A stretch of DNA of 52,486 nucleotides, taken from positions 1 to 52,486 of the forward strand of contig JAPHQU010000008.1 of NCBI GenBank assembly GCA_026195275.1. The letters run 5' to 3'. Positions 1,746 to 40,544 of the stretch are shown here, one piece after another (within the stretch, counting starts at the first letter, position 1; each line of letters opens with the position of its first letter). The notes below the pieces were generated by a model. That model had not been told where the DNA came from. It saw only the letters and a list, made by a program, of their open reading frames with translations, and did no database searches. This DNA is from Minisyncoccota bacterium. GTDB lineage: Bacteria; Patescibacteriota; Minisyncoccia; Phycocordibacterales; JABMNX01. Both the position numbers and the translations under genes were made by a program.

Positions 1746-1792
1746 TATGTTTCTGGACGAAAAGCATTGTTGCTGGTAGAGTACTAGCCACT

Positions 1793-1864: not shown

Positions 1865-1871
1865 CAAAGGC

Positions 1872-11060: not shown

Positions 11061-11167
11061 GACACACCCTCCTCGGGTCTGTGGCGCACTTTGCGCCTGT
11101 GTTTCATCTAGATGAATTATATCACACAGAATACATGTTTGTCAATGACTCTATACACCCTTTTTGT

Positions 11168-11196
11168 TTGTCGCTGACCCATAAAAAGCTTACAAT
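11168..11196 (+). promoter_or_regulatory. candidate promoter TTGTCG-17-TACAAT
   Basis: 17-nt spacer. The -10 box ends 10 nt before the ATG at 11207. Confidence 0.3.
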
Positions 11197-11206
11197 TAAG
11201 CCATCT

Positions 11207-20773: not shown

Positions 20774-20990
20774 GTTTTTATATATTATGTATTATTACTA
20801 TTAGTGGTGTGTATATGTTGAAAAGTCATATATAAGGCTTTTTTTGTATATATTATTCTCTAAATAATATATACAATTTGTGTATAACTTGAGTATGTTA
20901 TCTGTTTTTAAAAATAATATTTTCGTTTTCATGTTAGTTACTCTAGTTTTATACACAAAAGATAAACACTATACACAGACACTATCCACA
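20774..20990. promoter_or_regulatory. oriC-type region: DnaA-box cluster plus AT-rich tracts between dnaA and dnaN
   Basis: Boxes TGTGTATAA (20879-20887), TTATACACA (20949-20957), CTATACACA (20969-20977) and CTATCCACA (20982-20990), with long A/T runs at 20776-20805 and 20905-20925. Confidence 0.7.
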
Positions 20991-23893: not shown

Positions 23894-25084
23894 CTATTTC
23901 AAAGAGAGCGCCCAGAGTGTGGAATCTTTTTTGTTTGTAAAGATGAGTAGCTGTTCTTCCGGATCAACAGATATGTTGATGACATCAAGATCATACCCTG
24001 CTTCCTCGGCGTCATAGATCAATTGTGCTCGAGATGTTTCGGTGTCAAAGACCCAAATATCATCAGAGAATGACACAATGCCTTTATACCAATCGTCAGG
24101 ATAAGAAGCGCTCCGATCGAGTGAATATGGGGATCCGCAGTAAAGTTTCGTGTCATTCGCCCACGCACATTTTTCGGCAAGAGTTCTGAAAGGAAGTATG
24201 GAAAGATCCTCAGTGCGTGTATTGTAGATGGCGAGCTCTGTCCCGGCGTCCCCACTTTTGGATATAAGGAGTGTTGTGCCCTTTTGGTTTGGGGTAGCAA
24301 CCAACCCTTCACCAGAAATAATTTCAGTGAGACTTCCTGATCTGAGTCGATAGGTATGACCAACCACACTGCGAGAAGCCTTTGAGGTTAGTGTTATGTC
24401 GTCACCGAACCAATGTGGCGTCCAGTCGTATACTGTGGAAGAGAAGAGCAACCTACTGTTGGTTCCATCAAAATTTGATAAGAATCCATCGACTTGTTGA
24501 CTTGTCTGTTGTAGGTAGAACAGGTCACCGTCTGGATGTACTGAAAGGCCGATAATATTATTTGTTAAAAACCATCCATCGAGTTCATTATCCTCTTTGA
24601 TTATTTCCCCGTAAAAACTCCGCAAAGTTTCATTTTCATCGAGGTAGCGGAGGATTACCGCATCTCCCTCTGGACTCCAAACTACTTCTTGAATACGAGG
24701 GATGGTTGTGTTTGAAAGGCGTTCTTCTTGGAGTGAGTTCGCCCCCACCTCATAGATATGCCCGGTAGCACGCTCAATGTAGCGTATCCGGGTCTCTGTC
24801 TCCTCGGTAAGTATGATACCCCGTACACTCGGAACTCTTGAGATCTGTCGCAATGTTGGTATATAGACATCCTCATCAGCTGGTGCATCTAGAGTGTCTC
24901 GAGCATCTCCACTTGATGTGCCTGATGTGGGGAAAAGTCCACCACCACCTTTCCCATCAACACCCATACCCATTGGAAAATCAAAAGTATCTTTCAGATA
25001 GTGCTGATACGCGAAGAAAAGCACTCCAAGAGAAAGTGAGAAGACTATAATGATGATGAGTAGAATCTTGGTTCGTTTTTTCAT
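23894..25084 (-). CDS. membrane-anchored protein with a TolB-like beta-propeller region
   Basis: N-terminal TM segment ILLIIIIVFSLSLGVLFFA and a Gly-rich linker. Repeated segments such as VWSPEGDAVILRY and SVHPDGDLFYLQ resemble PD40/TolB blades. Last gene of the cluster. Confidence 0.55.
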   Translation of the reverse strand: MKKRTKILLIIIIVFSLSLGVLFFAYQHYLKDTFDFPMGMGVDGKGGGGLFPTSGTSSGDARDTLDAPADEDVYIPTLRQISRVPSVRGIILTEETETRIRYIERATGHIYEVGANSLQEERLSNTTIPRIQEVVWSPEGDAVILRYLDENETLRSFYGEIIKEDNELDGWFLTNNIIGLSVHPDGDLFYLQQTSQQVDGFLSNFDGTNSRLLFSSTVYDWTPHWFGDDITLTSKASRSVVGHTYRLRSGSLTEIISGEGLVATPNQKGTTLLISKSGDAGTELAIYNTRTEDLSILPFRTLAEKCAWANDTKLYCGSPYSLDRSASYPDDWYKGIVSFSDDIWVFDTETSRAQLIYDAEEAGYDLDVINISVDPEEQLLIFTNKKDSTLWALSLK

Positions 25085-25090
25085 ACCATA

Positions 25091-25624
25091 TTATTGATTA
25101 CCAACACCGGAACCAGTTCCAAACTCACTTGCCGGCTCTTGATCTACACTAGTACCACTTGAGGTGACGCCTTCAAATTCCCACAGACCAACACCACCCT
25201 TACTTGTCTTTGATTCAAGGTTTTGTGAAGAAGTGCTTCCCGATGGGGTAACATTGATATCAAAATTGATCAAATTTGGATTGATAGTGTAGAGGATTAC
25301 CCAGATAAGGAGTGCGAGAAGTAGTCCAAGAACTGCGTTAGTGATACGCTCCTTCCCCTCTGTTTTTCCATAGACGGCCTCAGAGGTCATGTACTCAATA
25401 CCACCAATGGTTATCATGACAACAGCGAGTGTTGCGGCGATTGCCAAACCAATACGGAATACAGTGTTGAGAAAATCACCAAATGACATACTGCTTGTAA
25501 CCCCCGGAAGTGGTGTCAGTGGGATAAAGGTTTCTTGCTGTGCGTAGGCGAGAACAGGAAGGAGTATGAGTAGCCCCAGACTAGCTCCATAAACATATAT
25601 TTTTTTGTTTTGTAAGTGTTTCAT
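25091..25624 (-). CDS. T4SS pilin-like protein (VirB2/TrbC analogue, CPR type)
   Basis: Signal peptide ending AYA followed by two hydrophobic helices (IGLAIAATLAVVMITIGGIEYM and AVLGLLLALLIWVILYTINPNL). Ser/Thr/Gly-rich C-terminal tail. Confidence 0.55.
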   Translation of the reverse strand: MKHLQNKKIYVYGASLGLLILLPVLAYAQQETFIPLTPLPGVTSSMSFGDFLNTVFRIGLAIAATLAVVMITIGGIEYMTSEAVYGKTEGKERITNAVLGLLLALLIWVILYTINPNLINFDINVTPSGSTSSQNLESKTSKGGVGLWEFEGVTSSGTSVDQEPASEFGTGSGVGNQ

Positions 25625-25626
25625 AT

Positions 25627-26679
25627 CTAAAAACTAGATCCTGATGAAGCGACACCAAAGAGTAAAGAGAATGACGCGGCTGCTTTTTGGAAAATATCGC
25701 GTGTGTTTTCTACAGAAACGGTGATGTTTGCTCTCCCCGCTTCTTCACCAGATTGTCGCACAGTAATGCTCCCACGGTCATCCCCAAGTGAGACGGGTTT
25801 TTTATCGAGTTGCCAGGCGTAGGTGATATGTGAAGCATTTCGATCACTTAATGACATAAAGAACGGAGAGGCAACAAATTTTGTTTCTGTTGTGGCCAGG
25901 TTGTAAGTTCCCGATACAGCTTGGTTGTAGAGTTGTCCGAGGAGTGGGTTGTTTTCATACACAATGATTTCCGGAGAGACGATAGGTATGTTGATGCTCG
26001 TATTTCTCACCAAAAGCCCATCAAGAGTCTCTGCTTGCACTTCAACGTTAATACTTTTACGAGGCCTTGCTTGAGAAACGCGTGCGGCACGCTTCCCTTT
26101 CCCTGAGATACGCTCAACAATACTCCCATCAACATACCAAGTGTAGACAAGTTCGTCGTCAGGAATACGAGCGCCAATATCATTTATAAAAAGTGGCACT
26201 GCTTCAATCGCGATCAAGCTGCCGATTGAGGGGAGCTTCCGTCCTTGATAGAACGCTGGGGTGTGCGTTTGCGCCTGCCACAAGAGGTCGAGTTTTGCTG
26301 GTCTTATAATGAGTTCCTGTGTGTAGACACGTGATGTGTCCTCAGCCACAATGGTTATTGTTGAGATGCTGCCGAGTCCACCAGTGGTGAATGTAAAAGA
26401 GGTTTGTCCAACACCTTGAAGTGCGAGTGTGTCATTTATAAACCATGACAAGGTCGCCACATTAAGGTCGATCGAGTAGCTTTTCACTAATATGGAAACA
26501 TCTTGGTTCGCTCCAGGGTTTCGCGGCATCACCGAGGGCACAAGCACATTATTGAGCTCAGGAACGATCTGCGCGCTTGTTGGGTGTGGAAACACAAACA
26601 TAGACAAAAAAATACCGAGCGTAAGAAGGAGTTTTTTTTCAAAAAGAGTAGTAAGCATACGTTTAGAGGGTATTTTCAT
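25627..26679 (-). CDS. secreted protein with three Ig-like internal repeats
   Basis: Signal peptide ...HPTSAQ. Three segments share the xW-[FYQ]-[IVL]-[ND] pattern (LSWFINDT, YTWYVDGS, YAWQLDKK), each followed by beta-rich sequence. Confidence 0.55.
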   Translation of the reverse strand: MKIPSKRMLTTLFEKKLLLTLGIFLSMFVFPHPTSAQIVPELNNVLVPSVMPRNPGANQDVSILVKSYSIDLNVATLSWFINDTLALQGVGQTSFTFTTGGLGSISTITIVAEDTSRVYTQELIIRPAKLDLLWQAQTHTPAFYQGRKLPSIGSLIAIEAVPLFINDIGARIPDDELVYTWYVDGSIVERISGKGKRAARVSQARPRKSINVEVQAETLDGLLVRNTSINIPIVSPEIIVYENNPLLGQLYNQAVSGTYNLATTETKFVASPFFMSLSDRNASHITYAWQLDKKPVSLGDDRGSITVRQSGEEAGRANITVSVENTRDIFQKAAASFSLLFGVASSGSSF

Positions 26680-27070
26680 TACGATTTGATCGTGCAGGTT
26701 TGTTTTTTACAGACCTTTGAGAGATATTGAACTGTTCTTGATCCTCCTTTCGCACCATAACAACAAGAGCAATCATAGAAAGTGTCCACGAAGGAATATT
26801 GTTTAGAATTGGGAGCACCTCTGTCACAATCGTCACACCTGCGAGCGCAATCTTTCGTGTCGATAAGAATGAAACACCATTCACTGCTAATACTATACCA
26901 AAAAAACACATCGCGAAGAACGACACTAGTGTATTAAGTATTGCGCCTAAAACCACAAACCCTATGAGTGTGAGAGCCCCTTGTATTAGGTCGGTAATAA
27001 TCGCCGATAAGACCAAGACCAAAGCAAGAGTGTTAGATATCCGCGGTTTAAACTCAGCGTTTGTATCCAT
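26663..27070 (-). CDS. small polytopic membrane protein
   Basis: 135 aa with 3-4 TM helices. Its stop overlaps the next gene's start by 17 nt, consistent with translational coupling. Confidence 0.6.
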   Translation of the reverse strand: MDTNAEFKPRISNTLALVLVLSAIITDLIQGALTLIGFVVLGAILNTLVSFFAMCFFGIVLAVNGVSFLSTRKIALAGVTIVTEVLPILNNIPSWTLSMIALVVMVRKEDQEQFNISQRSVKNKPARSNRNENTL

Positions 27071-27073
27071 AGC

Positions 27074-28909
27074 CTAGGTGCTGGTTGTTGAATCCTCCCC
27101 TATCCCTCGGATTCGCGCCTTGTTCTTCTTCATAGCAAGGATTTGCGACGGATCCGAGGTGATGATCTGGTCTTCAGTGTAGCTCGCGACAACTTTGATT
27201 GCCACATGTTTTAACCCGGCGAAGAAGATCCCCTCTCCCACATCAGACTCAAGAAGCAAATACTTCTCTTCGTCGCTGAGCTTAAACACCTCCTGCACCT
27301 TATCGACCGAAGTTGGCGATTGTTTCATAAGCAGCTGAATGGATGAGTTGCTGATCATAGGTGCGCCATAGGGCGAATCGAGGAAGTCAGACACGTCTTG
27401 GGTGATAGTAGCAAGTCCAAGGAAGTATTTTCGACCACGCTTCGCGATACCAAAGAGGAATGATGCGGTGTCTTCCGACTTCATCATCCACCACGCCTCA
27501 TCAATAACCAGAAGGCGTTTTTTAAGTTGTTTACGGACCATGTTCCAGATAAAGTGCGTGATGATATACATGGCAACCGGCTTCAAGTCGTCTTCCATAT
27601 CACGAACTGAAAAGACTACAAACTTCTTATTGATATCAACATTGGTTGGTCGATTAATAAATCCTGACCACGTGCCGCGCGTGTATTTATGAAGGCGCTG
27701 TACAAGAGACTCACTTCCCTCCATGCCGGCAAGTACGAGTTCAAAGTCGGAGAGAAGCGGTGGCTCGATGTGCGAGAAGTCTGATTGCGGGGTAATGTCT
27801 TTAAGCGCGTACGTTTCCGTAATTGCGTGATCAATAATCGCATCCTCCTCAGGAGTGAGACCACCGAGCATGATGCGGAAGAGCCCAACAAGATTGATGA
27901 TCTGGGAACGAATGATGTCAGCGGGATTCTCATCCTCGCGCGGTATTGGCAAGTCAAATGGGTTGATGTGGTGCTCTGAAGAAAGCGATATATTGAAGTA
28001 GCGCCCACCAGTCGCCTCTGCCATGTATTCGTACTCACGCTCAGGGTCAATCACGATTACCTCAGTATCAAACATAAGTGTGCGTAGTATCTCAAGTTTT
28101 ATGGCGTAGGATTTTCCTGCACCAGACTTCGCGAACATCACTGAGTTGTAGTTCTCAAGTGAGAACCGATCAAAGAGCACTAAGCTTGAGTTGTGGCGGT
28201 TGATGCCGTGGAGTATGCCACGATCAGAGGTGAGATCAAAAGAGATGAACGGGAAAATACTGGAGAGCGGTGACGAGTTGAGCTTTGAATGAACATTAAG
28301 CTCATCGGTTGCGTCGGGGAAGACGCTTCGAAAGCCTTGTTCTTGCTGAAAAAGAGCCGGCTTGAGGTAGACGAGCTTCGACTCAAGCATCGACTTGATC
28401 TCCGACTCTACTTTATCGAGCTCATCTGTTGAGTCGCCGTAGATGGTGATGTAGAGACCAACATCAAAGATCTTCTCCTGCGCTTGTTGGAGTTGGTCAC
28501 GGAGTGCTTCAAGGTCACCATACGCGGTATCGAGCTTTGGGTCGCGGACCAGCCCCTTCTCTTCACGTATTGAGATCTGACTCTGAATTTCAGCGACTTT
28601 CTTCTGAAATTTCCGGAGCACCGCAGCTGTGTCGGTTGGGTGAATCTGGATCGAAACATCAAAGACTTTGTCGAGGTTGATGATTGGTGAGAACCAGCTT
28701 TCATTGAGGAATCGTGGGTATGAGATAACAAAGAACGTGCGGGCGATCTTGTCTCCTAAATGAAGTTCTTTTGGGGTAACCTTGAGTGCTGATGGCGCGA
28801 TCACATCCTTGAGTTCAAGTGCACCTGCGCGAAAAATCTCCTCAGGAAGGATTGGGATGAATGTCTCATCTTTTTTTTGTTCTTTTCTGAAGAAATCAAG
28901 AAATGCCAT
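27074..28909 (-). CDS. virB4: VirB4/TrbE-family type IV secretion ATPase (Gram-positive PrgJ/TraE-like)
   Basis: 611 aa. Walker A FAKSGAGKSYAIK and Walker B RLLVIDEAWWMM, plus ATITQDVSDF. The N-terminal domain pattern ARTFFVISYPRFLNESWFSPIINLDKVFDVSIQIHP is typical of this family. Confidence 0.85.
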   Translation of the reverse strand: MAFLDFFRKEQKKDETFIPILPEEIFRAGALELKDVIAPSALKVTPKELHLGDKIARTFFVISYPRFLNESWFSPIINLDKVFDVSIQIHPTDTAAVLRKFQKKVAEIQSQISIREEKGLVRDPKLDTAYGDLEALRDQLQQAQEKIFDVGLYITIYGDSTDELDKVESEIKSMLESKLVYLKPALFQQEQGFRSVFPDATDELNVHSKLNSSPLSSIFPFISFDLTSDRGILHGINRHNSSLVLFDRFSLENYNSVMFAKSGAGKSYAIKLEILRTLMFDTEVIVIDPEREYEYMAEATGGRYFNISLSSEHHINPFDLPIPREDENPADIIRSQIINLVGLFRIMLGGLTPEEDAIIDHAITETYALKDITPQSDFSHIEPPLLSDFELVLAGMEGSESLVQRLHKYTRGTWSGFINRPTNVDINKKFVVFSVRDMEDDLKPVAMYIITHFIWNMVRKQLKKRLLVIDEAWWMMKSEDTASFLFGIAKRGRKYFLGLATITQDVSDFLDSPYGAPMISNSSIQLLMKQSPTSVDKVQEVFKLSDEEKYLLLESDVGEGIFFAGLKHVAIKVVASYTEDQIITSDPSQILAMKKNKARIRGIGEDSTTST

Positions 28910-28919
28910 GTAGATATTC

Positions 28920-29207
28920 TTAATGAATGTTAGTGAATTTAGAAGCTCTCGACCCTGTTAAATACGACTTGAGGCGATTTTGTAAGAACATTTTACCATG
29001 GTGTGTTTTTAAATACTCCTCACGATGTCGCGCATCAGCTTTATCAAGACAAGCTTCAGCGTAGATGAGTTCACATGGTTGCCTGTCTTTCGTCGATGCT
29101 ACACGACCGCTCTGGTGAGCCTCAAGTCGTCCTTTCAAATCGGTACTATAACCCGTATAGAACATGCCGTCTTTTTTCGATAGCAGTACATATATATAGT
29201 AGAACAT
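28920..29207 (-). CDS. GIY-YIG nuclease family protein
   Basis: 95 aa. FYYIYVLLSKKDGMFYTGYSTDLKGRLEAHQSG matches the GIY-YIG/UPF0213 signature. Confidence 0.85.
   Translation of the reverse strand: MFYYIYVLLSKKDGMFYTGYSTDLKGRLEAHQSGRVASTKDRQPCELIYAEACLDKADARHREEYLKTHHGKMFLQNRLKSYLTGSRASKFTNIH
28952..28963. repeat. left arm of the 12-bp perfect inverted repeat (ACCCTGTTAAAT)
   Basis: Its reverse complement ATTTAACAGGGT occurs at 29226-29237. The pair brackets almost the whole GIY-YIG gene. Confidence 0.8.
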
Positions 29208-29225
29208 AGAAATTGATTTGAAAGG

Positions 29226-29237
29226 ATTTAACAGGGT
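29226..29237. repeat. right arm of the 12-bp inverted repeat (ATTTAACAGGGT)
   Basis: See 28952-28963. Confidence 0.8.
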
Positions 29238-29244
29238 GCGTGCA

Positions 29245-29898
29245 TCATGGTCGCTGCACTCCCTGATTTAACGCAATAGGCTTCTCCTGTTCACCAGGAT
29301 TGAACATTTTATAATAAAGTTCAATAAGCTCTTCGGTATCAAGCTTGATTACACGCACTCCAGAGCGAACTAATCCCTGCTCGACTACCGCCATGCGTTG
29401 TTCAAGTTGTGAGCGACTTTCTTCAAAACTTACATTGCGCGCGTCTTCTTTTTTGTCCTTTTTCCCGAATACTCTAGAGAACGCACCGCCATCCCGACTC
29501 ACAATAGGCGCGGCATATGGGACAATGACAAAGAAGTTCTTGGTCATGATGTTTGAGAGATCCACAAAACTCTTCACAAAGTCTATGTATTCACGGATCT
29601 GTATCTGCATAAGATCGTCAACTGTGTTCTCGAGCTGTTCTTCAAGTAGCGCAACATATGGCCGGATATCAAGCTCACGAGATTGCACGAATATCTGAAC
29701 TGAGAATTCGAGGGAGTTGAGAAAATTCTGAAATTGCGAGAGGATCGCATTCTGTTCATCGGCAGACTTGAGCGCAAAGTTAAGAGAAGACGCGATAAAC
29801 ACACTACGCAATGACCCGTCTTTAAGAACCACAATCCCATCGCGGATCTCTTCTACCGGTACAAAGTCTTGTGAGGCTTTTGTTTTTTGTTCCGCCAT
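29245..29898 (-). CDS. hypothetical protein resembling a stand-alone VirB4 N-terminal (non-ATPase) domain
   Basis: 217 aa with no P-loop. The pattern FVPVEEIRDGIVVLKDGSLRSVFIASSLNFALKSADEQNAILSQFQNFLNSLEFSVQIFVQSRELDIRPY parallels VirB4/TraC N-domains. It sits between the prgI-like gene and virB4. Confidence 0.4.
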   Translation of the reverse strand: MAEQKTKASQDFVPVEEIRDGIVVLKDGSLRSVFIASSLNFALKSADEQNAILSQFQNFLNSLEFSVQIFVQSRELDIRPYVALLEEQLENTVDDLMQIQIREYIDFVKSFVDLSNIMTKNFFVIVPYAAPIVSRDGGAFSRVFGKKDKKEDARNVSFEESRSQLEQRMAVVEQGLVRSGVRVIKLDTEELIELYYKMFNPGEQEKPIALNQGVQRP

Positions 29899-29900
29899 AG

Positions 29901-30341
29901 TTATACGTTCGTCTGGTTATGTGATCCGGTTGCTGGATTAATCGTCTCTTTGATATCAAGACTCCAAGCAAGGTCTTTTAATTTGCTTTCGGAGAGATTA
30001 GGGACCGAGAGTGTCTGTGCTCCTCCCGCCTCCTTTGCTACCGCCTCCTTTTTTGGTGTCGCTTTCTTGCTTTCCCAAAGATAGAGCTTGTTGCCAAGTG
30101 TATAGTTTATCGCGTACTCGAGGATGTTAAGGAGTGGTCGGTTGTTTACCTTATAGAAAGCGAGACCAACAGAGAGTGCAACAACAGGGCCGACCAATAC
30201 GAGCGCAATGTATGTTGGGAGCAAACTCCAAATAACGAACGAAAGCCCGGCTCCCCCCGCCAGATAAATGAATTGTTTAAGTGTTAAAGGGCCGAATATC
30301 TTATCTTCGACCTCAATAAACTGCGGTACTTGGTAGCGCAT
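29901..30341 (-). CDS. PrgI-family (VirB3-like) T4SS membrane protein
   Basis: 146 aa. The N-terminus MRYQVPQFIEVEDKIFGPLTLKQFIYLAGG followed by two TM helices matches the PrgI family signature. Confidence 0.7.
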   Translation of the reverse strand: MRYQVPQFIEVEDKIFGPLTLKQFIYLAGGAGLSFVIWSLLPTYIALVLVGPVVALSVGLAFYKVNNRPLLNILEYAINYTLGNKLYLWESKKATPKKEAVAKEAGGAQTLSVPNLSESKLKDLAWSLDIKETINPATGSHNQTNV

Positions 30342-30347
30342 GTCCTC

Positions 30348-30353
30348 ATTATA
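30348..30353 (-). promoter_or_regulatory. perfect -10 hexamer TATAAT, 6 nt upstream of the prgI-like ATG
   Basis: The minus strand reads GAACGTATAATGAGGACATG. This looks like an internal promoter of the cluster giving a leaderless transcript. Confidence 0.4.
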
Positions 30354-30501
30354 CGTTCTTTAGCGTACAAATTAAACGAGTTTATACACGAGTGATGTTT
30401 GCCAGCTGTTATCAATCATCAGTCACAAGGTGTTACTAACGAACGCCGCGAGCAAGGCTCGCGGCGTATTCACTGATTACCCAACAACTTCTAACCGACG
30501 G

Positions 30502-31080
30502 CTATTCCACTGGTTCTCGATAGGGGTCTACCGCATAACTCCCTTTTGGTGGCTCAAGCTTGATCTCTTTATGTCCTCGCGTGACCACGTCAGCGAATTC
30601 TTCCTTTTGTTCGGTCGGTTGTGGTTGTTGTGTTTGAGGCCGCTTTGGTGAAATAGTGGGTGCAATAGGAGTTTTTGCGGGTTCTTTCGGCGGCATTGAA
30701 GCTGTTTGCTCGAGCTTTTGGGTTGGCGACATTGACCCCTCCTCCGAGACGACAACCTCTGTTGTGCGCGCTTTTAATTCATTGCGAACAGAGAGGAAGA
30801 TATCTTGAGCGACTTCAGTCGCAATCTTTTCTGCCTGATCTTTTGGTATGTTGAGCTCGTGTCGAATATTCTCCTCGTATTTTCCCGCCTCTTCAATGCC
30901 TAAGAGCACCATATAGGTCTCATTCTCGAGGATCTGTCCTTGGTCGAGGTGAAGACGGTATTTTGTTGCAATCTCACGGAGCTTCTCTGCAACCTCAGTT
31001 GAGGTGATCGCCTGCTGGAGCTTTTCCGGAAGCTCGGCGAAACGATCGCGTATGAGTTGGTGTATATTAATATCGTTCAT
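30502..31080 (-). CDS. hypothetical protein, paralogue B of a tandem pair
   Basis: 192 aa. The N-terminal 100 aa is collinear with the neighbouring 175-aa protein (LP..., ST, ET..V..G, IP.D.A..I.TE). Pro/Gln-rich C-terminus. Confidence 0.6.
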   Translation of the reverse strand: MNDINIHQLIRDRFAELPEKLQQAITSTEVAEKLREIATKYRLHLDQGQILENETYMVLLGIEEAGKYEENIRHELNIPKDQAEKIATEVAQDIFLSVRNELKARTTEVVVSEEGSMSPTQKLEQTASMPPKEPAKTPIAPTISPKRPQTQQPQPTEQKEEFADVVTRGHKEIKLEPPKGSYAVDPYREPVE

Positions 31081-31099
31081 GGAATTCTAGAGTTAGTGC

Positions 31100-31627
31100 T
31101 TACTTAAGGTTGGCAAGGAAATCTTTAATATCGACCGTTTTACTGTTCTCTCTGAGCATCTGTCGCACTGTTGCTACTTCGCTTTCCTTCGTCACTTTTG
31201 ATCTCTCTTCAGTGTGCTCAATGGGGGGCTTAATCGCAACCTTCTCTCTCCCTGCAATCCTAGTCGTCGGTGGTGAGCTTAGTTCTTCACGAAGTTCCTC
31301 CTTCTCCTCTTTTTCCAAAAAGTCTGCAAGATCATCGGCAATAGGAACGATTAGGTCTGCAGTGATCTCGGTTGAAATAGTATAGGCTGTATCCTCTGGA
31401 ATCTCCGCCTCTTTTGCGATGTTCGCGCTGAGTTCGGCGAATGGTGATAGCCCCATAATGACAAGTAGTGTCTCGTCGCTGACTGTTTGTGCGACCTCTG
31501 ACGAAAGGGCATATGCGTTTGTCAGCGCGTCTATCTTATCTTCGAGTTTAGTGCTTCGCACGAACTCTCGGATTGAGGGCGGGAGCTTCACATACTGGTC
31601 TTTGATTATGTTACGTACTTGGTTCAT
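31100..31627 (-). CDS. hypothetical protein, paralogue A of a tandem pair
   Basis: 175 aa. See 30502..31080. Acidic C-terminal half. Confidence 0.6.
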   Translation of the reverse strand: MNQVRNIIKDQYVKLPPSIREFVRSTKLEDKIDALTNAYALSSEVAQTVSDETLLVIMGLSPFAELSANIAKEAEIPEDTAYTISTEITADLIVPIADDLADFLEKEEKEELREELSSPPTTRIAGREKVAIKPPIEHTEERSKVTKESEVATVRQMLRENSKTVDIKDFLANLK

Positions 31628-31641
31628 GGTCGTTTCTTACC

Positions 31642-33666
31642 TTATTCTTTTGGTTTCTCATCGCTTTGGCTCGCCTCTTTTTCTTCGTTCTCGTCCTCTT
31701 CCTTTGCGACTTCTTTTGCAAGGTCGGCAAGCTTCTCTTTTTTACTCTTTTCCTTTCGGATTGCGATGGTGGCTTCCTGGTTCTTGCGCGGAACCTTTAT
31801 GCCAAGTCGCTCGATAGTTGAGGTTCCAAGGACGTTTGCGTAACTTTCGGCTCGTTCTTTTCCTATCTTCCCGACTTTTTCTAGCTCACTCTTTGCTTGT
31901 TTCTCTCGCTCTTCCGCCGCGCGAACTTTCGTTTCTATGTTCTCTAGTTCAATGCTTGCGGTATTTATCTGCGTATCGATATCTTGAACTTCCGGGGCAT
32001 ACTCTCCAACGTCCCTTGCGCGTCGCTCTCGCTCTCTGCCGAGGGCGCCGATCCTTTCTTGTGTCGCTCTCTTCTCCTTTAGGACAACCTCCTTTTCCTT
32101 CTCGGCTTTATTTTGGGCAGCTTCGCGAGACTCTCTTAGTTTTGATTCCGTAACAACATCGGGTCCGAGGGTCTTTGCAAAACTCTTGCGGTCTTCAATC
32201 TGTTTTTTGATGACGGCTTCGTACCCACCCTTCTGCGGTTTACCAAGATCTGCCCCTGCACTCTTTGCTACCTCAGTTGCGGCTCTGGTTGCGCGAATAT
32301 CATAGCTCGCTCCTGCTCCCACACGTGTTGCCTTTAGTGCTTGGCGAGCCGCGAAGCCACGCGCGCCACCTTGAGATGCAGCTTCTTTAAGCCCCTCACT
32401 CTGGGAAATATAGCGGAAGCCGCGACCTAAGGTGTGGCGTCCAATGGTGCCAATGGTGCCGAAGGTTGCTTTGCTTGCTAATTGCGAGGCACCTTTCCCT
32501 CCAGCGATTGATAGATTCTTTGCAACCATAATTGCGCCAAGCATCAGTGATGTGAGAATGGAGAAGTTGAGGACCATCTTGATGGCGGCTGTTCTGCCAC
32601 CCGGATCTGCAGCGAGTATTCCCGCGAGTGCTGCGCCGTCTGGAGTGAAGGCGGCGGTAACACCCGGCATGACCTTTGCCACTGCCCAAAAGAGGATAAA
32701 GAGTGCCGGCGCGAAGATCGCGTACTCCCAGAGTTTTTTCCACCACGTCCACGTCCACTTCTGTGTTTGTGGAAGTACGAAGGCAGCAAAGGCAATTGGT
32801 GAGAGGATCATGAGTCCTATAAACCCAACTGCGCGCATAATGAGCATGCCGGCAGCGAAAAAGAATACGAACGCGGCCACCAGGAAGAATATACCAGTGA
32901 AAATTGAGTAAATGAACATAACTCCAATACCGCCATTTTGATAGTTTATCTTGTTGAGTGTTTTTAATATGGTTGTGTTGTCCCAGAGTGACCCAATGCC
33001 GGAGTGATTCATGAACTTGGCAGTGATTCCGGTAAGGGAATCGCCCTCTTGGGAGGTATATATGTCTTGTGACCCAACAATCCCTTGGTAGAACTGAAGT
33101 GCAAAAATATTTGACGCATCGATAACAAACTTCGTGAAGAAGAGACTGAAGTTAATAACAAGTGCGACTAGTATAAGTGTCGCAAGGAGCTTCTTTGCGC
33201 CGTAGTTAGCAACTCCAAGGATCGTCGAGATAGCGATGATCAGAAGTCCGAATATGAAGAATATATTTGCAAGATCGCGCAAAACCCCCCATGTTTCGGT
33301 GATGGCGGTAATATCTGAGAGGTATGTCCCTAATTTAACGACGGTTTCAACCATTACAACGTCGAGCAGTCCGCCGGCAACATACAAGAAGAAGCTCGTG
33401 AGGTAGATCGGCAAGAACGCAATGGTCTCCATGAACGAGTTGAGTGCATCCCTAATCCAACATGCAGGAGAGCTGCAACTGCTTTCAATGAAACCATCAT
33501 TATTATATTGGGTGCCAGGCGGCAGCTCCTCCTCTGTAGGGGGAGCGCTCGTATTTTGTGCGTACGCCGTGTTTAATTGCACGGGGGTGTCGACTACGTC
33601 ACTGCTAAAGGAAACCGGCGTAAGGAGTGCAAGAAGTATAAGGTTGATAAATATGAATTTCTTCAT
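31642..33666 (-). CDS. VirB6/TrbL-like polytopic membrane protein with a long charged C-terminal tail
   Basis: 674 aa. Signal peptide, about 8 TM helices in residues 80-400, then about 200 aa of K/E/R-rich coiled-coil-like sequence. Confidence 0.55.
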   Translation of the reverse strand: MKKFIFINLILLALLTPVSFSSDVVDTPVQLNTAYAQNTSAPPTEEELPPGTQYNNDGFIESSCSSPACWIRDALNSFMETIAFLPIYLTSFFLYVAGGLLDVVMVETVVKLGTYLSDITAITETWGVLRDLANIFFIFGLLIIAISTILGVANYGAKKLLATLILVALVINFSLFFTKFVIDASNIFALQFYQGIVGSQDIYTSQEGDSLTGITAKFMNHSGIGSLWDNTTILKTLNKINYQNGGIGVMFIYSIFTGIFFLVAAFVFFFAAGMLIMRAVGFIGLMILSPIAFAAFVLPQTQKWTWTWWKKLWEYAIFAPALFILFWAVAKVMPGVTAAFTPDGAALAGILAADPGGRTAAIKMVLNFSILTSLMLGAIMVAKNLSIAGGKGASQLASKATFGTIGTIGRHTLGRGFRYISQSEGLKEAASQGGARGFAARQALKATRVGAGASYDIRATRAATEVAKSAGADLGKPQKGGYEAVIKKQIEDRKSFAKTLGPDVVTESKLRESREAAQNKAEKEKEVVLKEKRATQERIGALGRERERRARDVGEYAPEVQDIDTQINTASIELENIETKVRAAEEREKQAKSELEKVGKIGKERAESYANVLGTSTIERLGIKVPRKNQEATIAIRKEKSKKEKLADLAKEVAKEEDENEEKEASQSDEKPKE

Positions 33667-33671
33667 GGTGT

Positions 33672-35324
33672 TTATATATCACTTCCGCGTTGAGGGAATG
33701 ACTCACATGCGCCAAGTTTTGTATTGGTGCTTTGGTTGATTGAGTCGGTGATTTCCTTCAGGTCTTCTTTTTGCTGTTGTGCGATTAGGAAGTCTTGGTT
33801 GTCGCGAATCTCTCCAGCCCTCACTAGAGGATCAAGTTCATCAGCGATAATACGCTCAACGCCCGTACGAGAACTTGCAGCAAGTAAGTTCTCTTTAATA
33901 ATAAGAAGTTTTGAGATTGTGGTTTCTGCCTGATGTATTTCACTCTCAATAAGGTTTTGTAGCGGGGTGATACTTCCAGTAATGGTTGAAGATGCGCTCG
34001 CGATGGCGTTCAATGCAGTCTGCCGCTCCTCAGTGGTGAGCGTTGGTGAGAATGTGGTGCTTAGTTTACCGGTATAACAGGCCTGAAGCGATTCAAGAAG
34101 TGATTCAGAGTTGTTTAAGCGCTCAAGAGACACTCGTTTCTCTGAGATATATGACTGTTCAGTCGCGATTGCCCCTTCAACAGTGCTTACTGCATAGCTT
34201 TTAAAATCTGCTCTAGCCCCGGTATCTGATTGCGAGACGAGTTGATCCACATATGACGGGCGGCTATAACTACTTGAGCTGAGACCGCGGAGCCCTCCTT
34301 GAAGACCACCGAGTGTTTGTTGTGCGAGTTGTCCGAGGAGCGCGCCAATGATCTCATTGATCTCATCGGCAAGTTCAAGTTGGCGGAATCCTGATCCGAG
34401 TGTATTACTCAACTGCTCATTAATAACTACGCCCGGGGTGGCAATGCGGCAGTTGATTCGTGTGTTGCCAATCCCGCCCGATATAACCGGCGCACCACTC
34501 CCCTGCGCGTCTGTTGGTTGGTCACAGATCTCATATGACTTAAAACCGTTTCCCCAATTAAGAATACTGATCTGCCGGTTTTGCTCTTCTGCAATCGCAA
34601 GACGGAGCGACTGCCGTGCACCAAGAAATGAGCCGAGCGCGTTGTTGTTTGGGTTAATCGTGAGATCGAACCACGCATCCCACGCACTTTGGTTGGAGAA
34701 GTCATCAAACGCATCTTGAACATTTTCAATTGCGCCGGTGAGCGTACACGCTGCTTTATCACGTGCCGAAGAGTAGTAGTCAAGTGCGAGTGCAATCTTC
34801 ACATCAATCTTGAATGGGCTACAGAGGAATGCGAGTTCCGACCCTTCGATATATCGCCCAACAACCTGGTCAGCAACATCAAGCATGAACCCTTCAAGAT
34901 CTGAGACGAATGCTGGTTCACCATCAAAGCCGTTATTGATCCAATTTACAATACTTCGGGTTATGCTCGAGATAAGCACCTCACGAATGACCGTGGTGAG
35001 ACCGTCGAGGATACAGTCTTTGTTTTTTATCGTACCGGTGTTTGCGGTGACTGCAGCGTCGTTTGTTGGAACCACAAGTCCGATGAGGCTCGCACCAGCA
35101 CCGATAGCGGCATCAATATACCCACCACCCACACAGGAGAGAATGCCACCTGCCGCAGACCCGTATGACCCGGTACCTGTCTGTGGGTTGTACTCTCCTG
35201 TTCCAAATTCACCAGCATCTTGTGCATATGCAGTCTCAGGCACAAACCCAAAACCAAATGGAGCGACAAGTGCCAAGACAAGAAGGAAAGAAATGGATTT
35301 TTTAATGTGAGTGAATGTGTGCAT
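33672..35324 (-). CDS. large secreted protein of unknown family
   Basis: The ATG at 35324 (MHTFTHIKK) was chosen over the TTG at 35339. Signal peptide ...ETAYAQ. 550 aa with no recognisable domain. Confidence 0.6.
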   Translation of the reverse strand: MHTFTHIKKSISFLLVLALVAPFGFGFVPETAYAQDAGEFGTGEYNPQTGTGSYGSAAGGILSCVGGGYIDAAIGAGASLIGLVVPTNDAAVTANTGTIKNKDCILDGLTTVIREVLISSITRSIVNWINNGFDGEPAFVSDLEGFMLDVADQVVGRYIEGSELAFLCSPFKIDVKIALALDYYSSARDKAACTLTGAIENVQDAFDDFSNQSAWDAWFDLTINPNNNALGSFLGARQSLRLAIAEEQNRQISILNWGNGFKSYEICDQPTDAQGSGAPVISGGIGNTRINCRIATPGVVINEQLSNTLGSGFRQLELADEINEIIGALLGQLAQQTLGGLQGGLRGLSSSSYSRPSYVDQLVSQSDTGARADFKSYAVSTVEGAIATEQSYISEKRVSLERLNNSESLLESLQACYTGKLSTTFSPTLTTEERQTALNAIASASSTITGSITPLQNLIESEIHQAETTISKLLIIKENLLAASSRTGVERIIADELDPLVRAGEIRDNQDFLIAQQQKEDLKEITDSINQSTNTKLGACESFPQRGSDI

Positions 35325-35328
35325 ACGC

Positions 35329-36258
35329 CTATGAATCAACGCTATTAATGATTAAATATGTGTTCAATCGCCCCAATGCCGCCTTGATCTTTGCTTCCCC
35401 TTCAGTGTAACCACTAATCGCGGTAAGTGCCGCAAGCGGATCGCTGTTTGTGTTCGCCATAGCATCGAGCACTGATACAAAGAAACTGAATGCGTTTAGC
35501 ATATCAACATGAATCGACACAGCGTCAGTCGGCACCGCGACTCCTTTGAGAAGCGTGATTGTTGCTTCATACTGGGCTTTTGCATACTGGAGCTTTGTAA
35601 AACCAGACTCATCGCCACTATCAATAATGCGCGTGAATGTAATAAGCTCATCTTCTTTTACATTGAAAAGTGGCGACCAAGCACTCTGAAGCGAAGCGCG
35701 ATACGCTTCAGGGGTTACTTCAGGAGAGATAAGCACATCATCCGCTGTGTTTATTGGTGCAGTTATTGGCACAACATTGCTTCCAACAAGACTCGAGACA
35801 AAATTTTCCTCAATAGAAGTACCGAGATAACCACGCTGCTTTAGGTCGATATATCCTTCGAATAGTTTAAAAGCAAGTTTTTCTGTATCGGGGAGTGATT
35901 CAACCATTTCCCGACTTATTCCTTGTGACGATCCGGTGCTTGTGTCGTTTGGTCCGGATATGAGCGGGTCGCGATCTTGTGCTATTTCGTCGCCATCTGA
36001 GGTGCCATCTCCATCGGTGTCTGCTAGGTTCGGATCAGTCTTCAAGAGAACTTCTTCCCAATCCCTCAAACCATCATTATCAGAGTCAATAGAGGCAAGT
36101 GTGTTTGTGTTAACGCTCGTATAATCATCACCAACAGTGATGGTTGTCGTTCCAACACGTTCCTTTAATTGATGTTTTATAAATGTTGCACCAACGAGAA
36201 GCAACCCGCATATAACGGCAATAGCCACAACGTTTTTCTTTCCGAAACGCCCTTCCAC
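35329..36258 (-). CDS. membrane-anchored protein with thrombospondin-type-3-like Ca-binding repeats
   Basis: N-terminal TM segment VVAIAVICGLLLVGATFI. The acidic repeats are DSDNDGLRDWEE and DTDGDGTSDGDE. Confidence 0.6.
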   Translation of the reverse strand: MEGRFGKKNVVAIAVICGLLLVGATFIKHQLKERVGTTTITVGDDYTSVNTNTLASIDSDNDGLRDWEEVLLKTDPNLADTDGDGTSDGDEIAQDRDPLISGPNDTSTGSSQGISREMVESLPDTEKLAFKLFEGYIDLKQRGYLGTSIEENFVSSLVGSNVVPITAPINTADDVLISPEVTPEAYRASLQSAWSPLFNVKEDELITFTRIIDSGDESGFTKLQYAKAQYEATITLLKGVAVPTDAVSIHVDMLNAFSFFVSVLDAMANTNSDPLAALTAISGYTEGEAKIKAALGRLNTYLIINSVDS

Positions 36259-36333
36259 TCCTTTAGTATAGCAGTGTTTCTAACTCTTTTTCACTGGTGA
36301 GTGTGAACAAATTGTCTAACGCTAATAGGTGCG

Positions 36334-37074
36334 CTAAAAAGGGAGGTTGAATATCAATCCTGGTTCGCTTTCATTAAAAACAATACCGTAGACGCGGAAT
36401 GTCTGCGCGAGGTTCATATACGCGTCGATAAACGGAGTGAGCGTGTTGTTGTAGGCAAGAAGATCATCAACTGATACCGCACTTAAGAGAAGTGCATTCA
36501 TGCCGCCGGCGATGCTGAGATATGCTTGTATCAGGTTTTTGTGCATGTCGGCAACGGTTTCAGGTGGAGTAATACTGAGAAGTGAATCGGCAGTCGCAGC
36601 ATAATCATCAGCAAGTAGTTTCATCGCCTGGCGCGAAGTCGTGTCTTTCGGGTTGGTGATAAATGAATTAAGCACCGCAGATTCATCGCGCCCAGAGTCG
36701 AGGCGGTCTTGTATTGTTGTGCCGACACTATTGCCGTAGCGTTTTAAGGCAACCGCTGCTTCATCTAGAAAAAAGCTCGAAGAGGATTTGGTATCATACT
36801 CATCTTGAGTCATGGTGCTGCTGGTGCGTGACTCAAGAAAGTCAGAAAGGGTTGTGTGGCTAAGTTCGTATGAAGTACGCTCTGCGTTCATCTGAAGTTG
36901 GCCGATCGATTCATATCCAGATGGTTTCCCTGTCGATCCGGAAACAGTGAGCCCATCTTCAAGTTGTCCTCCAACAGGTCCCTCTTGAGTGTTTTCTGCA
37001 AGCAAAAATATACTACTCAAAACAAGTGCAAGCAGGGCAATAAGCAGAGAAACCCCTTTAAGATGTGCATACAT
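36334..37074 (-). CDS. membrane-anchored hypothetical protein, first gene of the cluster
   Basis: Start moved to the ATG (MYAHLKGVSLLIALLALVLSSIF). The upstream extension in the track runs into the divergent gene. Confidence 0.55.
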   Translation of the reverse strand: MYAHLKGVSLLIALLALVLSSIFLLAENTQEGPVGGQLEDGLTVSGSTGKPSGYESIGQLQMNAERTSYELSHTTLSDFLESRTSSTMTQDEYDTKSSSSFFLDEAAVALKRYGNSVGTTIQDRLDSGRDESAVLNSFITNPKDTTSRQAMKLLADDYAATADSLLSITPPETVADMHKNLIQAYLSIAGGMNALLLSAVSVDDLLAYNNTLTPFIDAYMNLAQTFRVYGIVFNESEPGLIFNLPF

Positions 37075-37111
37075 AGTAGTGAGTATATCACGCAGAGTGT
37101 ATACTTTTTGT

Positions 37112-37465
37112 ATGTATACGCACACACTAAATACGCGATCAATAATTATTCTCGCTTCCCTCTTTGTGCTCTCACTCACCCTTCTTTTTGTGCCAACTCG
37201 CGCACACGCGCTCAAACCATTTGGTGGTCAGGTTGGTGCAATCATCCCGTGTATGGGTGGTTCTATTCACGCGACCGTCGGACCACCGGTTGGAGGCGCT
37301 TATATATGGACACCGGGAACACGGACATATCTCTTTGGGCCACCTTCTCCCGGTAGATGGGTATTGGGGAATGCTGCAGGTCCGGGTATTTGTGTTGTCT
37401 CTATAAACCCGCCGATCTTCTTTACTGGACTGGTTATGGTAATGGTCGGTTCAAGTGGTATCTAA
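37112..37465 (+). CDS. small secreted Gly/Pro-rich protein with a hydrophobic C-terminus
   Basis: 117 aa. Signal peptide ...VPTRAHA. The mature part is LKPFGGQVGAIIPCMGG...GPGICVV...IFFTGLVMVMVGSSGI. Divergent from the cluster. Confidence 0.55.
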   Translation: MYTHTLNTRSIIILASLFVLSLTLLFVPTRAHALKPFGGQVGAIIPCMGGSIHATVGPPVGGAYIWTPGTRTYLFGPPSPGRWVLGNAAGPGICVVSINPPIFFTGLVMVMVGSSGI

Positions 37466-38244
37466 GAGATCTCTTCAGTAAGCTCTCTCCACATCTCTAG
37501 CGGCACGTCTTCTGCGCGCACGTTCTCATCAAGGTCAATCTTTTTAAATATGTTGATGAGTGCTTCCTTCTCGGTCAGTGTTTGTAAATTATTTAAAAGG
37601 TACTTTCGTTTGCTCGCAAAACCCGCTTTCACTATTTCAAAAAAGCGCCTTTCGGTACTGTTTCCAAAAAAGTCGCGTGAAATATTTTCAATCGCAAGAA
37701 TCGCCGAGTCTACTCTTGGTACGGGGCGGAATGCGCCGGCTTTTATAGTGCCGACATAACGTGGTGTGCCATACGCTTTCACGCTCAGCGAGAGAATGCT
37801 TTCTTTTTTCTCGCGAGCGATACGCTCCGCAATTTCCTTTTGCACAATAAACACAATACTTTTCGGCTGGACTGTGTTTTCAAGAAGTGATCGTAAAATA
37901 AGACCGGTGATATAGTATGGAATATTCGCGACCACGATGAACGCATGGTCATGAAGTCCGAGCGAAGCGAGGTTTATCTCGAGTATGTCGCCAGGGACAA
38001 TAACAAGCTTCCCGCTCGTGACTTCTTCGGTAAATGTTTCCTCGAGCCGGCGCGCGAGCTCAAGGTCTTTCTCGACCGCGATCACCTTCCCCGACCGTTT
38101 CACGAGCTCTTTGGTGAGCGCACCTTCGCCCGGCCCGATCTCAAGTATAGTGTCCGTTGGTGAAACACCCGCCGCCTCGACCGTTTTTATAATGGATTGT
38201 GGTGCGACGAGAAAATGCTGTCCAAGTGATTTCTTTGCTCTCAT
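37462..38244 (-). CDS. rsmA: 16S rRNA (adenine1518/1519-N6)-dimethyltransferase
   Basis: 260 aa. SLGQHFL, SAM motif LEIGPGEGALT and NIPYYIT. Confidence 0.92.
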   Translation of the reverse strand: MRAKKSLGQHFLVAPQSIIKTVEAAGVSPTDTILEIGPGEGALTKELVKRSGKVIAVEKDLELARRLEETFTEEVTSGKLVIVPGDILEINLASLGLHDHAFIVVANIPYYITGLILRSLLENTVQPKSIVFIVQKEIAERIAREKKESILSLSVKAYGTPRYVGTIKAGAFRPVPRVDSAILAIENISRDFFGNSTERRFFEIVKAGFASKRKYLLNNLQTLTEKEALINIFKKIDLDENVRAEDVPLEMWRELTEEIS

Positions 38245-38249
38245 AGTCT

Positions 38250-40355: not shown

Positions 40356-40544
40356 GGGTGCATAGCTGTATGGGCGCTATTTTCTGTGGCTTAACAGAGC
40401 CATTCTTCAGATAGAACGACAGAATTTCCCAGTAACCTTTAGCTTATCGAATCAAACCAACAAGATTCCGACCCCTCACATAATACATTTGGTCGGAGGA
40501 CAAAAGAGGTACGCACGCGGCTCAAGACCGCTCTTTTCTCGGTG

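Follow-up and report, generated by a model that had tools for sequence, protein, structure and literature searches.

A chromosomal T4SS-like cluster beside dnaA

The window analyzed here is a 52,486-nucleotide stretch of a Minisyncoccota bacterium genome (contig JAPHQU010000008.1 of assembly GCA_026195275.1, positions 1 to 52,486), and the system in question is a cluster of genes resembling those of type IV secretion systems (T4SSs). From 37074 down to 23894, 14 open reading frames (ORFs), referred to as g14 to g01, are tightly packed on the minus strand, and the 13 junctions measure -17 to +37 nucleotides (nt), except for g14/g13 (75 nt) and g09/g08 (160 nt). The 14 genes comprise 11 conserved families, two extra paralogues (g10 and g14), and a sporadic GIY-YIG insert. 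An earlier account made from the letters alone (the sequence-only reading) had described a run of 14 minus-strand genes with short gaps or overlaps, and the ORFs and junctions confirm it. Membership of the cluster has to be revised, in that the GIY-YIG gene is sporadic and a 15th, divergent gene at 37112-37465 had been overlooked. The co-oriented T4SS genes form an apparent operon that is closed by a strong terminator-like hairpin.

The earlier account had proposed a nonconjugative, VirB4-powered pilus or channel. Matches to T4SS models, a fixed site in 46 species, and the lack of conjugation and mobility genes in the window together support a nonconjugative chromosomal machine, and the same proposal had already been published. 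We consider it highly likely that the cluster is a standard member of the chromosomal, nonconjugative T4SSs of the Patescibacteria clade, which nearly all of these ultrasmall (CPR) bacteria have beside the replication origin, and we are less confident of the details. These systems were surveyed in 3,035 Patescibacteria genomes, with VirB4 found in 2,417 of them, by Quinonero-Coronel et al. (2025, Microb Genom 11:001409; PMC12102498). The core components of the cluster and the hairpin are as follows.

27074..28909, minus strand: g05, VirB4 ATPase of the MPF_FATA/CD1110 type, 611 amino acids (aa), middle plus C-terminal ATPase domains, from NCBIfam matches and motifs
29245..29898, minus strand: g07, TrsD-like, free-standing homologue of the VirB4 N-terminal domain, 217 aa, cytosolic, from NCBIfam matches
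29901..30341, minus strand: g08, PrgI/VirB3-like, two transmembrane (TM) segments; Pfam PrgI 7.7e-11, 42.8 bits (gathering score 27)
31642..33666, minus strand: g11, extended VirB6-like polytopic protein; signal peptide, at least six TM segments, Lys/Glu-rich hydrophilic tail of ~270 aa
25091..25624, minus strand: g02, VirB2-like T4SS pilin; signal peptide, two hydrophobic helices, Ser/Thr/Gly-rich tail of ~55 aa
23846..23887, minus strand: terminator-like hairpin with a 19-bp stem, directly 3' of the g01 stop and facing the yidC 3' end

Motor, membrane, and pilin components

The predicted motor of the system is g05. It matches NCBIfam conju_CD1110 at 8.3e-109 and 364.9 bits (equivalog cutoff 325) over profile positions 183 to 733 of 752, matches Pfam P-loop_TraG (1.4e-25), AAA_10, and DUF87, and carries intact nucleotide-binding motifs (Walker A AKSGAGKS; Walker B LLVIDE); profile-profile alignment (hhalign) with PrgJ of pCF10 gave a probability of 99.6%. 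The NCBIfam scores ran from CD1110 (365 bits) through Mycoplasma VirB4 (268), TraC-F (176), and VirB4_CagE (124) to Bacteroidetes TraG (56). By this ranking the protein appears nearest to the VirB4s of monoderm (FATA) systems and not to those of the MPF_T, F, I, G, B, or C types, and we infer from its ~80% identity to Paceibacteria VirB4s that it belongs to the published Patescibacteria VirB4 clade.

Immediately upstream, g07 matches the N-terminal part of VirB4_plasma (5.7e-11), TrsD (3.3e-6), and conju_CD1110 positions 2 to 115 (1e-5), all below the full-length cutoffs, as expected of a single domain. Since g07 covers CD1110 positions 2-115 and g05 covers 183-733, the two make up a split VirB4 like TrsD/TrsE of pGO1. 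The TrsD-like and virB4 genes are separate, abutting ORFs, with the TrsD-like gene directly upstream, in 78 of 78 relatives, and the split is ancestral. The possibility that the GIY-YIG gene had cut VirB4 in two was rejected, because the ORFs are separate in all 78 of these relatives, which lack the nuclease.

The PrgI/VirB3-like g08 is the predicted membrane anchor for VirB4. For the pilin g02, matches were obtained with Pfam T4SS_pilin (1.7e-8, 34.9 bits; gathering score 26.6), weakly with TrbC, and with the NCBIfam Mbov_0395 pilin-like model (5.2e-5); its orthologues range from 112 to 580 aa, a spread that points to variable pilin tails. The position and topology of g11 fit VirB6. TrbL was matched by 11 of 45 g11 orthologues (best, 9.1e-7), g11 has a weak match to CD3337/EF1877, its top pCF10 partner was PrgH at an hhalign probability of only 17%, and the family profile found no VirB6 among PDB sequences. 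When the cluster families were aligned with pCF10 PrgC to PcfA, VirB4 with PrgJ was the only pair recovered, plus faint PrgH and PrgI signals. The VirB4, PrgI/VirB3, and pilin anchors named in the sequence-only reading thus all exceed NCBIfam or Pfam cutoffs in profile hidden Markov model (HMM) searches of the kind that it had called for; the VirB6-like anchor matched TrbL below threshold.

Missing conjugation and other T4SS parts

Every window ORF of at least 120 aa, flanks included, was annotated with Pfam and NCBIfam scans. Consistent with what had been claimed, the Pfam scans of these ORFs over the 52 kb gave no relaxase, VirD4/TcpA, VirB9/10, or VirB11, and neither Pfam nor NCBIfam matched a VirB7/VirB9/VirB10 outer-membrane core in the window. 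The earlier statement that the cluster and its flanks hold no integrase also stood: the sole tyrosine recombinase of the window (47022-47933) is XerC/D-type (244 to 246 bits) and is surrounded by core genes, at a distance of 10 kb. No att-like direct repeats flank the cluster, neither of its ends has a tRNA within 15 kb, and its GC content does not differ from that of the flanks.

The sole T2SSE-type ATPase of the window, encoded at 11081-12901 on the plus strand 11 kb from the cluster, scores ~415 bits against PilB and GspE models versus 46 bits against VirB11. The presence of this PilB/GspE-type assembly ATPase means that the organism has a type IV pilus as well as the T4SS pilin system.

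Candidates for other T4SS parts were considered among the cluster families. Alignment of all of them with PrgL and PrgD gave hhalign probabilities of at most 1.0%, and PDB profile searches of g01, g03, g12, and g13/14 gave no VirB8-like protein. The idea of g13 as the missing VirB8 was rejected, as its AlphaFold2 (AF2) model is all-helical and not NTF2-like alpha+beta. DUF4141, a 53-residue model, matched the extreme N terminus of 7 of 65 g12 homologues and did not match the window g12 itself; with nothing from Foldseek or PDB profiles, g12 as a VirB5/TraI-like protein is a weak lead only. An all-against-all hhalign comparison of 10 families (VirB4 omitted) gave two strong pairs, g03 with g04 and g01 with g12, which coincide with families sharing member ORFs and were discarded as probable artefacts; the shared ORFs of g03 and g04 look like fused ORF calls.

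Conservation of the locus across relatives

Related loci (80, ranked on VirB4 similarity) were searched with the window proteins by tblastn, and iterated HMM searches were run in the 46 that span rsmA to yidC and therefore hold full clusters. The canonical order is pcrA, rsmA, one or two copies of the 13/14 family, g12, VirB6, the 9/10 family, PrgI, TrsD, VirB4, g04 where present, g03, the pilin and g01 in either order, and then yidC on the opposite strand, followed by dnaA and dnaN. In all 46 species with loci spanning rsmA to yidC, the cluster is at the identical chromosomal site; each full cluster carries one or two copies of the 13/14 family and one member of the 9/10 family. The synteny comparison thus linked 11 families at the virB4 locus across the 46 full clusters, one of them, g04, in 19. 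The same site and order in 46 species place the cluster in the core chromosome and not in an integrative and conjugative element (ICE), as the sequence-only reading had suggested, and the lack of att-like repeats agrees.

VirB4 relatives that are 77 to 84% identical occur in at least 588 species-representative genomes. Those with names fall into the Parcubacteria group of Patescibacteria (Kaiserbacteria, Campbellbacteria, Taylorbacteria, Nomurabacteria, Zambryskibacteria, Adlerbacteria, Paceibacterota, and Parcubacteria), and the closest are Kaiserbacteria, Paceibacterota, and Parcubacteria metagenome-assembled genomes (MAGs). The window comes from a Kaiserbacteria-like genome of the Parcubacteria/Paceibacteria. 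Several MAGs labelled "uncultured Candidatus Saccharibacteria" have the same synteny and ~80% VirB4 identity; we take these labels with caution. Median identities to the window proteins were as follows.

Motor and anchor: VirB4 80% (80 species), TrsD 61%, PrgI 52%
Housekeeping: DnaA 60%, PcrA 53%, RsmA 47%, YidC 46%, DnaN 42%
Exposed, membrane, and other: pilin 39%, g09 33%, g03 30%, g01 29%, VirB6 29%, g12 29%, g13 28%

VirB4 (27074-28909) diverges more slowly than DnaA (20991-22355), PcrA, and DnaN in the same genomes. Despite the bias from selecting loci on VirB4, these identities indicate a clear contrast between a hyperconserved cytoplasmic motor and fast-diverging exposed parts. That contrast fits a host-contact surface and points to where it is likely to lie.

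Accessory proteins and inserts

The remaining genes of the run, and the 15th gene beside it, are as follows.

36334..37074, minus strand: g14, 246 aa, N-terminal TM segment; g13 paralogue without TSP3 repeats, extra copy of the 13/14 family
35329..36258, minus strand: g13, N-terminal TM segment, TSP3 (Ca-binding) repeats, all-helical, four-helix-bundle-like exposed domain at residues 124-304
33672..35324, minus strand: g12, 550 aa, secreted or N-anchored, mostly helical, conserved Cys, WINxGFxGxP motif
31100..31627, minus strand: g10, cytosolic g09 paralogue without the C-terminal DPYRE tail; extra copy absent from most relatives
30502..31080, minus strand: g09, cytosolic; helical conserved N-domain of ~105 aa, variable Pro-rich linker, near-invariant C-terminal DPYRE-x(2-3) tail
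28920..29207, minus strand: g06, GIY-YIG nuclease domain protein, 95 aa; Pfam GIY-YIG 1.7e-15
26663..27070, minus strand: g04, small membrane protein with three to four TM segments by hydropathy
25627..26679, minus strand: g03, N-anchored or secreted; three Ig-like repeats, 'xTWxVNG…G.GK' pattern in the consensus
23894..25084, minus strand: g01, last gene of the operon, N-anchored; disordered Gly-rich linker, TolB-like beta-propeller (weak signal)
37112..37465, plus strand: 15th gene, 117 aa; signal peptide (…VPTRAHA|LKPFGG…), Gly/Pro-rich mature part, two Cys

For seven of the 11 conserved families, no match in Pfam, NCBIfam, PHROGs, or the PDB exceeded the threshold, the TSP3 repeats of g13 excepted, and PDB profile searches of g01, g03, g09/10, g12, g13/14, and VirB6 returned only weak TolB and Hoc signals. 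The earlier claim that most structural parts are undescribed proteins therefore holds. Its companion, that the genes other than the four anchors and the nuclease encode signal-peptide or single-TM proteins of no recognizable family, held only in part: most of these families indeed lack a match, but g07 is TrsD-like, and g05, g06, g07, g09, and g10 have no signal peptide and no TM segment. Without a hydrophobic segment, these five are cytosolic and not secreted.

The g09-family gene is always flanked by the VirB6-like gene and prgI. When the window and the 80 loci were translated in six frames, DPYRE occurred 65 times, 63 of them within two to four residues of a stop; the 64 occurrences in the loci are all on the cluster strand and, wherever this could be checked, at the position of the g09-family gene. 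An exhaustive profile search with the family gave 7132 cluster representatives at E <= 1e-3 and 4035 at E <= 1e-10; counted in clusters at 50% identity, the family exceeds 4,000. Many representatives have tandem N-domains, often two or three, and of the 142 top representatives, 101 retain the DPYRE tail. No relevant description of this motif emerged from a literature search. The pairing of g10 with g09 as tandem paralogues, as had been proposed, was recovered by BLASTP (27% over 97 aa; E, 2e-16), and a second paralogue pair had been overlooked: iterated HMM searches seeded with g13 or with g14 converged on the same 58 proteins.

Of this second pair, g14 had no Pfam match and g13 matched Pfam TSP3_bac at 2.6e-8, which together with the GIY-YIG match of g06 bears out two domain calls of the sequence-only reading. 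The AF2 model of g13 (predicted local distance difference test [pLDDT], 85.8) has an all-helical exposed part for which Foldseek returned generic four-helix-bundle sensor domains only (E >= 0.1); Y186, P243, H250, and D273 are near-invariant in the family. All 214 homologues of g12 are annotated as hypothetical proteins. The g12 model has a pLDDT of 72.7, rising above 90 in a C-terminal helical bundle (~370-550), and neither Foldseek nor a PDB profile search gave a match. Discoidin (F5/8-type-C) and Ig-like modules occur at the C terminus of 5 to 6 of 65 g12 homologues, which suggests surface binding for these few proteins.

The Ig-like repeats and the beta-propeller had been called from the letters, and both were recovered, with weak signals only: the g03 profile matched Hoc Ig-like domains in the PDB (6.6e-5), and the g01 profile matched TolB propellers (~1e-3; NCBIfam TolB, 0.037). 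The g03 gene is in 43 of 46 clusters by HMM and in 78 of 80 loci by tblastn; g01 is in all 46 clusters and has two invariant cysteines, C306 and C316. For g04, which had been described as a small four-TM protein, hydropathy gave three to four segments; it is present in ~40% of the clusters (19/46 by iterated HMM search) and had no family match in Pfam, NCBIfam, or PHROGs.

The GIY-YIG gene occurs in just 3 of the 80 related loci, at other positions, and g06 is a sporadic selfish insert and no part of the T4SS. The trsD-virB4 spacer in which it sits (28910-29244) holds 23S_rRNA_IVP genes (four-helix bundle, PF05635) in three related loci (L005:2974-3420, L034:4314-4715, and L051:9487-9941), and the spacer apparently gathers small selfish genes.

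The gene at 37112-37465 is divergent from the operon, and its 3' end overlaps the rsmA stop. Its product has the motif PFGGQ..PC…GPP.GG.Y.WTP…FGPP..G.W.LG and no Pfam match, and it was found in 20 of the 80 related loci (tblastn, 27 to 52% identity). In the loci checked, rsmA and the first g13/14 gene flank the homologous gene, which in most cases is encoded on the opposite strand.

Borders and surroundings of the cluster

The cluster is bordered by rsmA and pcrA on one side and by yidC, rnpA, rpmH, dnaA, and dnaN on the other. The cumulative GC-skew minimum is near 19 to 21 kb of the window, and DnaA-box-like 9-mers lie at 20879-20990, in the dnaA-dnaN spacer, and at 22450, upstream of dnaA. 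The flank genes, the GC skew, and these 9-mers all agree with the earlier placement of the cluster between yidC and rsmA/pcrA, 1.5 kb from the dnaA/oriC region. A sigma-70 promoter scan gave fewer sites than expected by chance.

The T4SS operon and rsmA-pcrA (23894-40235) are transcribed toward dnaA/oriC (~20.8 to 22.5 kb), an orientation that is kept in related loci. If the GC skew and DnaA boxes mark the origin correctly, the operon is head-on to the rightward replication fork, which is odd for a cluster proposed to gain from origin-proximal gene dosage.

Further core genes of the window are ruvA, ruvB, ruvC, polA, tsaE, pilB, tyrS, and a class A penicillin-binding protein gene, and an M23/LysM hydrolase gene, comM, the XerC/D-type recombinase gene, xth, and cca on the rsmA-pcrA side. 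The LysM plus M23 peptidoglycan hydrolase is encoded at 40542-41540 on the plus strand, three genes and 3 kb past the cluster; proteins of the LysM/M23 type are counted as VirB1-like and associated with virB4 in Paceibacteria (PMC12102498). An Rfam scan of the window gave four tRNAs and nothing else. One of them, tRNA-Arg (1793-1865, plus strand), overlaps the 5' part of a 323-aa Lnb_N-domain ORF (915-1886, minus strand), so that the real start of this gene is probably farther downstream.

Proposed function and its alternatives

We propose that the machinery originated from monoderm (MPF_FATA) conjugation machinery and may have been repurposed for a host-dependent lifestyle instead of conjugation. 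Hexamers of TrsD/VirB4 would dock on PrgI and VirB6 in a single membrane, pull pilin from the membrane, and polymerize it into a pilus or conduit of the VirB2 type that crosses the wall. The exposed, rapidly evolving proteins g12, g13/14, g03, and g01 may build the wall-spanning and host-contact part, and the cytosolic, DPYRE-tailed g09 family could work at the cytoplasmic face as an adaptor or substrate. Candidate cargoes are effectors delivered to the host or macromolecules acquired from it. By analogy with Saccharibacteria, growth on a host cell probably requires the machine.

One alternative is an integrated conjugative element, or what is left of one, with the relaxase, coupling protein, and integrase outside the cluster or the window. 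The VirB4 family of the cluster (conju_CD1110, VirB4_plasma) is indeed typical of ICEs and plasmids of Firmicutes and Tenericutes, the pilin is weakly like Mycoplasma ICE proteins, a GIY-YIG gene lies inside the cluster, and a tyrosine recombinase is encoded at 47022-47933. However, the synteny, with the same neighbors and order in 46 of 46 species with spanning loci, largely refutes this explanation, and VirB4 diverges more slowly than DnaA, the recombinase is a XerC/D-type enzyme 10 kb off among core genes, the cluster has no flanking direct repeats, no tRNA within 15 kb, and the GC content of its flanks, and the window holds no relaxase or type IV coupling protein (T4CP), with relaxases reported in only 103 of 3,035 Patescibacteria genomes (PMC12102498). 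We regard a conjugative element as extremely improbable.

The two other alternatives concern what the chromosomal machine does. A DNA-uptake role, of the type of the Helicobacter ComB T4SS or archaeal Ced and importing host or environmental DNA as a nucleotide source, would accord with the lack of relaxase and coupling protein in the window, with the lack of nucleotide synthesis in Patescibacteria, for which T4SS import has been proposed (PMC12102498; PMC11665869), and with a weak partial match of VirB4 to CedB (3e-9). We think it unlikely, as there is no ComB-type VirB7/9/10 core and no DNA-binding or DNA-processing protein in the cluster besides the sporadic GIY-YIG insert, and as competence in "Candidatus Southlakia epibionticum" needs ComEC and type IV pili (PMC12857230); since a comEC deletion is viable there and the T4SS is essential, the role of the T4SS in that organism is not classical transformation. 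The machine could instead be chiefly an organelle of adhesion, in which VirB4 polymerizes a VirB2-like pilin that carries g12, g03, and g01 at its tip or on its surface and attaches to the host with no translocation. The highly variable pilin tails, the fast-evolving exposed proteins, the discoidin and Ig-like modules on some g12 homologues, and the lack of a coupling protein in the window speak for this role, which we nevertheless find doubtful: the type IV pilus ATPase PilB (11081-12901) is also encoded, type IV pili already give adhesion and motility in Saccharibacteria (PMC12857230), and a large VirB6 channel protein together with a conserved, cytosolic DPYRE-tailed protein suggests membrane traffic. 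Uptake and adhesion are alternative functions of the same machine that sequence data cannot separate.

Several points weigh against a nonconjugative Patescibacteria-type T4SS as the identity of the cluster or against the details proposed for it. The search for a relaxase and VirD4 covers the 52-kb window, and in Patescibacteria, VirD4 homologues are commonly encoded at a distance from virB4 (PMC12102498). Within the cluster, no component resembling VirB8 or VirB1 was found. The assignment of 31642-33666 as VirB6/TrbL-like, made in the earlier account, is upheld by topology and by the TrbL-matching orthologues, but g11 itself falls below the Pfam TrbL threshold (2.2e-4, 21.5 bits versus a gathering score of 25.9). 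Ranking of the loci on VirB4 similarity inflates VirB4 conservation somewhat. Roles for seven families (g01, g03, g04, g09/10, g12, g13/14, and the 37112-37465 protein) come from linkage and topology only, and the function is inferred from homologues and from work in a different class, Saccharimonadia.

With these points considered, we favor the nonconjugative chromosomal T4SS. Tentatively, its fixed accessory set (g12, g13/14, g03, g01, g04, and the g09 family), which has no detectable counterpart in the T4SS components compared, might constitute a new wall-spanning, host-contact T4SS architecture, in which the g09 family would be either an adaptor replacing the coupling protein or a secreted substrate. 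Patescibacteria account for a large part of bacterial diversity, and every cultivated member is host dependent; few machines are known to be essential for living in this way, and in Saccharibacteria the chromosomal T4SS is among them. The window brings no new concept; it offers a clean, complete Paceibacteria example with a per-gene map of universal parts, duplicates, and selfish inserts. What novelty remains lies in the undescribed accessory families and above all in the DPYRE-tailed cytosolic protein, a concrete candidate for interaction or substrate studies.

Comparison with known systems

Among monoderm MPF_FATA systems, pCF10 Prg/Pcf shares with the window PrgI and the gene order, in that the VirB6-like gene, PrgI, and VirB4 correspond to prgH-prgI-prgJ, and the window VirB4 aligns to PrgJ. 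The arrangement of separate TrsD and VirB4 is shared with pGO1 Trs, and the window VirB4 passes the CD1110 equivalog cutoff of the Clostridioides difficile conjugative transposon (CTn). Compared with these systems and the Mycoplasma ICE, the window is without PcfC/VirD4, a relaxase, a PrgK-type hydrolase, the VirB8-like protein PrgL/PrgD, and an LPXTG adhesin; it has a VirB2-like pilin, absent from the Gram-positive systems, and is chromosomally fixed beside oriC. Helicobacter pylori ComB is likewise chromosomal, without relaxase or coupling protein, and put to nonconjugative use, but it is a diderm, MPF_T-type system with a VirB7/9/10 core, of which the window has none.

A closer parallel is the T4SS cluster SEML1_0006-0019 of the saccharibacterium "Ca. 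Southlakia epibionticum" ML1, which transposon sequencing (Tn-seq) showed to be essential for epibiotic growth and which encodes pilins and no recognizable coupling protein or relaxase (Wang et al. 2023, Cell; PMC10633639). Both clusters are chromosomal, contain ~14 genes, and resemble Gram-positive conjugative systems. The S. epibionticum cluster, in the class Saccharimonadia, lies at the start of the genome and has an array of six divergent pilins, with peptidase and lysozyme genes downstream of virB4, whereas the cluster in the window encodes a single pilin and no hydrolase. The Patescibacteria systems have been called a distinct newcomer to the T4SS superfamily in a 2025 review (PMC12857230), and a 2024 perspective described their role as "completely unknown" (PMC11665869).

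The closest correspondence is with the Paceibacteria T4SS of PMC12102498. According to that survey, the Patescibacteria VirB4 clade is nested in MPF_FATA, TrsD, PrgI/VirB3, VirB6, and VirB2-like pilins adjoin virB4 in Patescibacteria, and the Paceibacteria cluster is close to dnaA, dnaN, rnpA, rpmH, and ksgA (= rsmA). No naming of the accessory families g01, g03, g04, g09/10, g12, and g13/14 or of the 37112-37465 protein was found in the text consulted. The cluster in the window has the same MPF_FATA-related VirB4, the same adjacent TrsD, PrgI/VirB3, and VirB2-like pilin, a probable VirB6, no relaxase and no nearby T4CP, and the same proximity to dnaA, dnaN, rnpA, rpmH, and ksgA. The identity of the cluster and its interpretation are thus correct and not new, being already published for Patescibacteria; the window adds a GIY-YIG insert and the extra paralogues g10 and g14 and differs in nothing essential.

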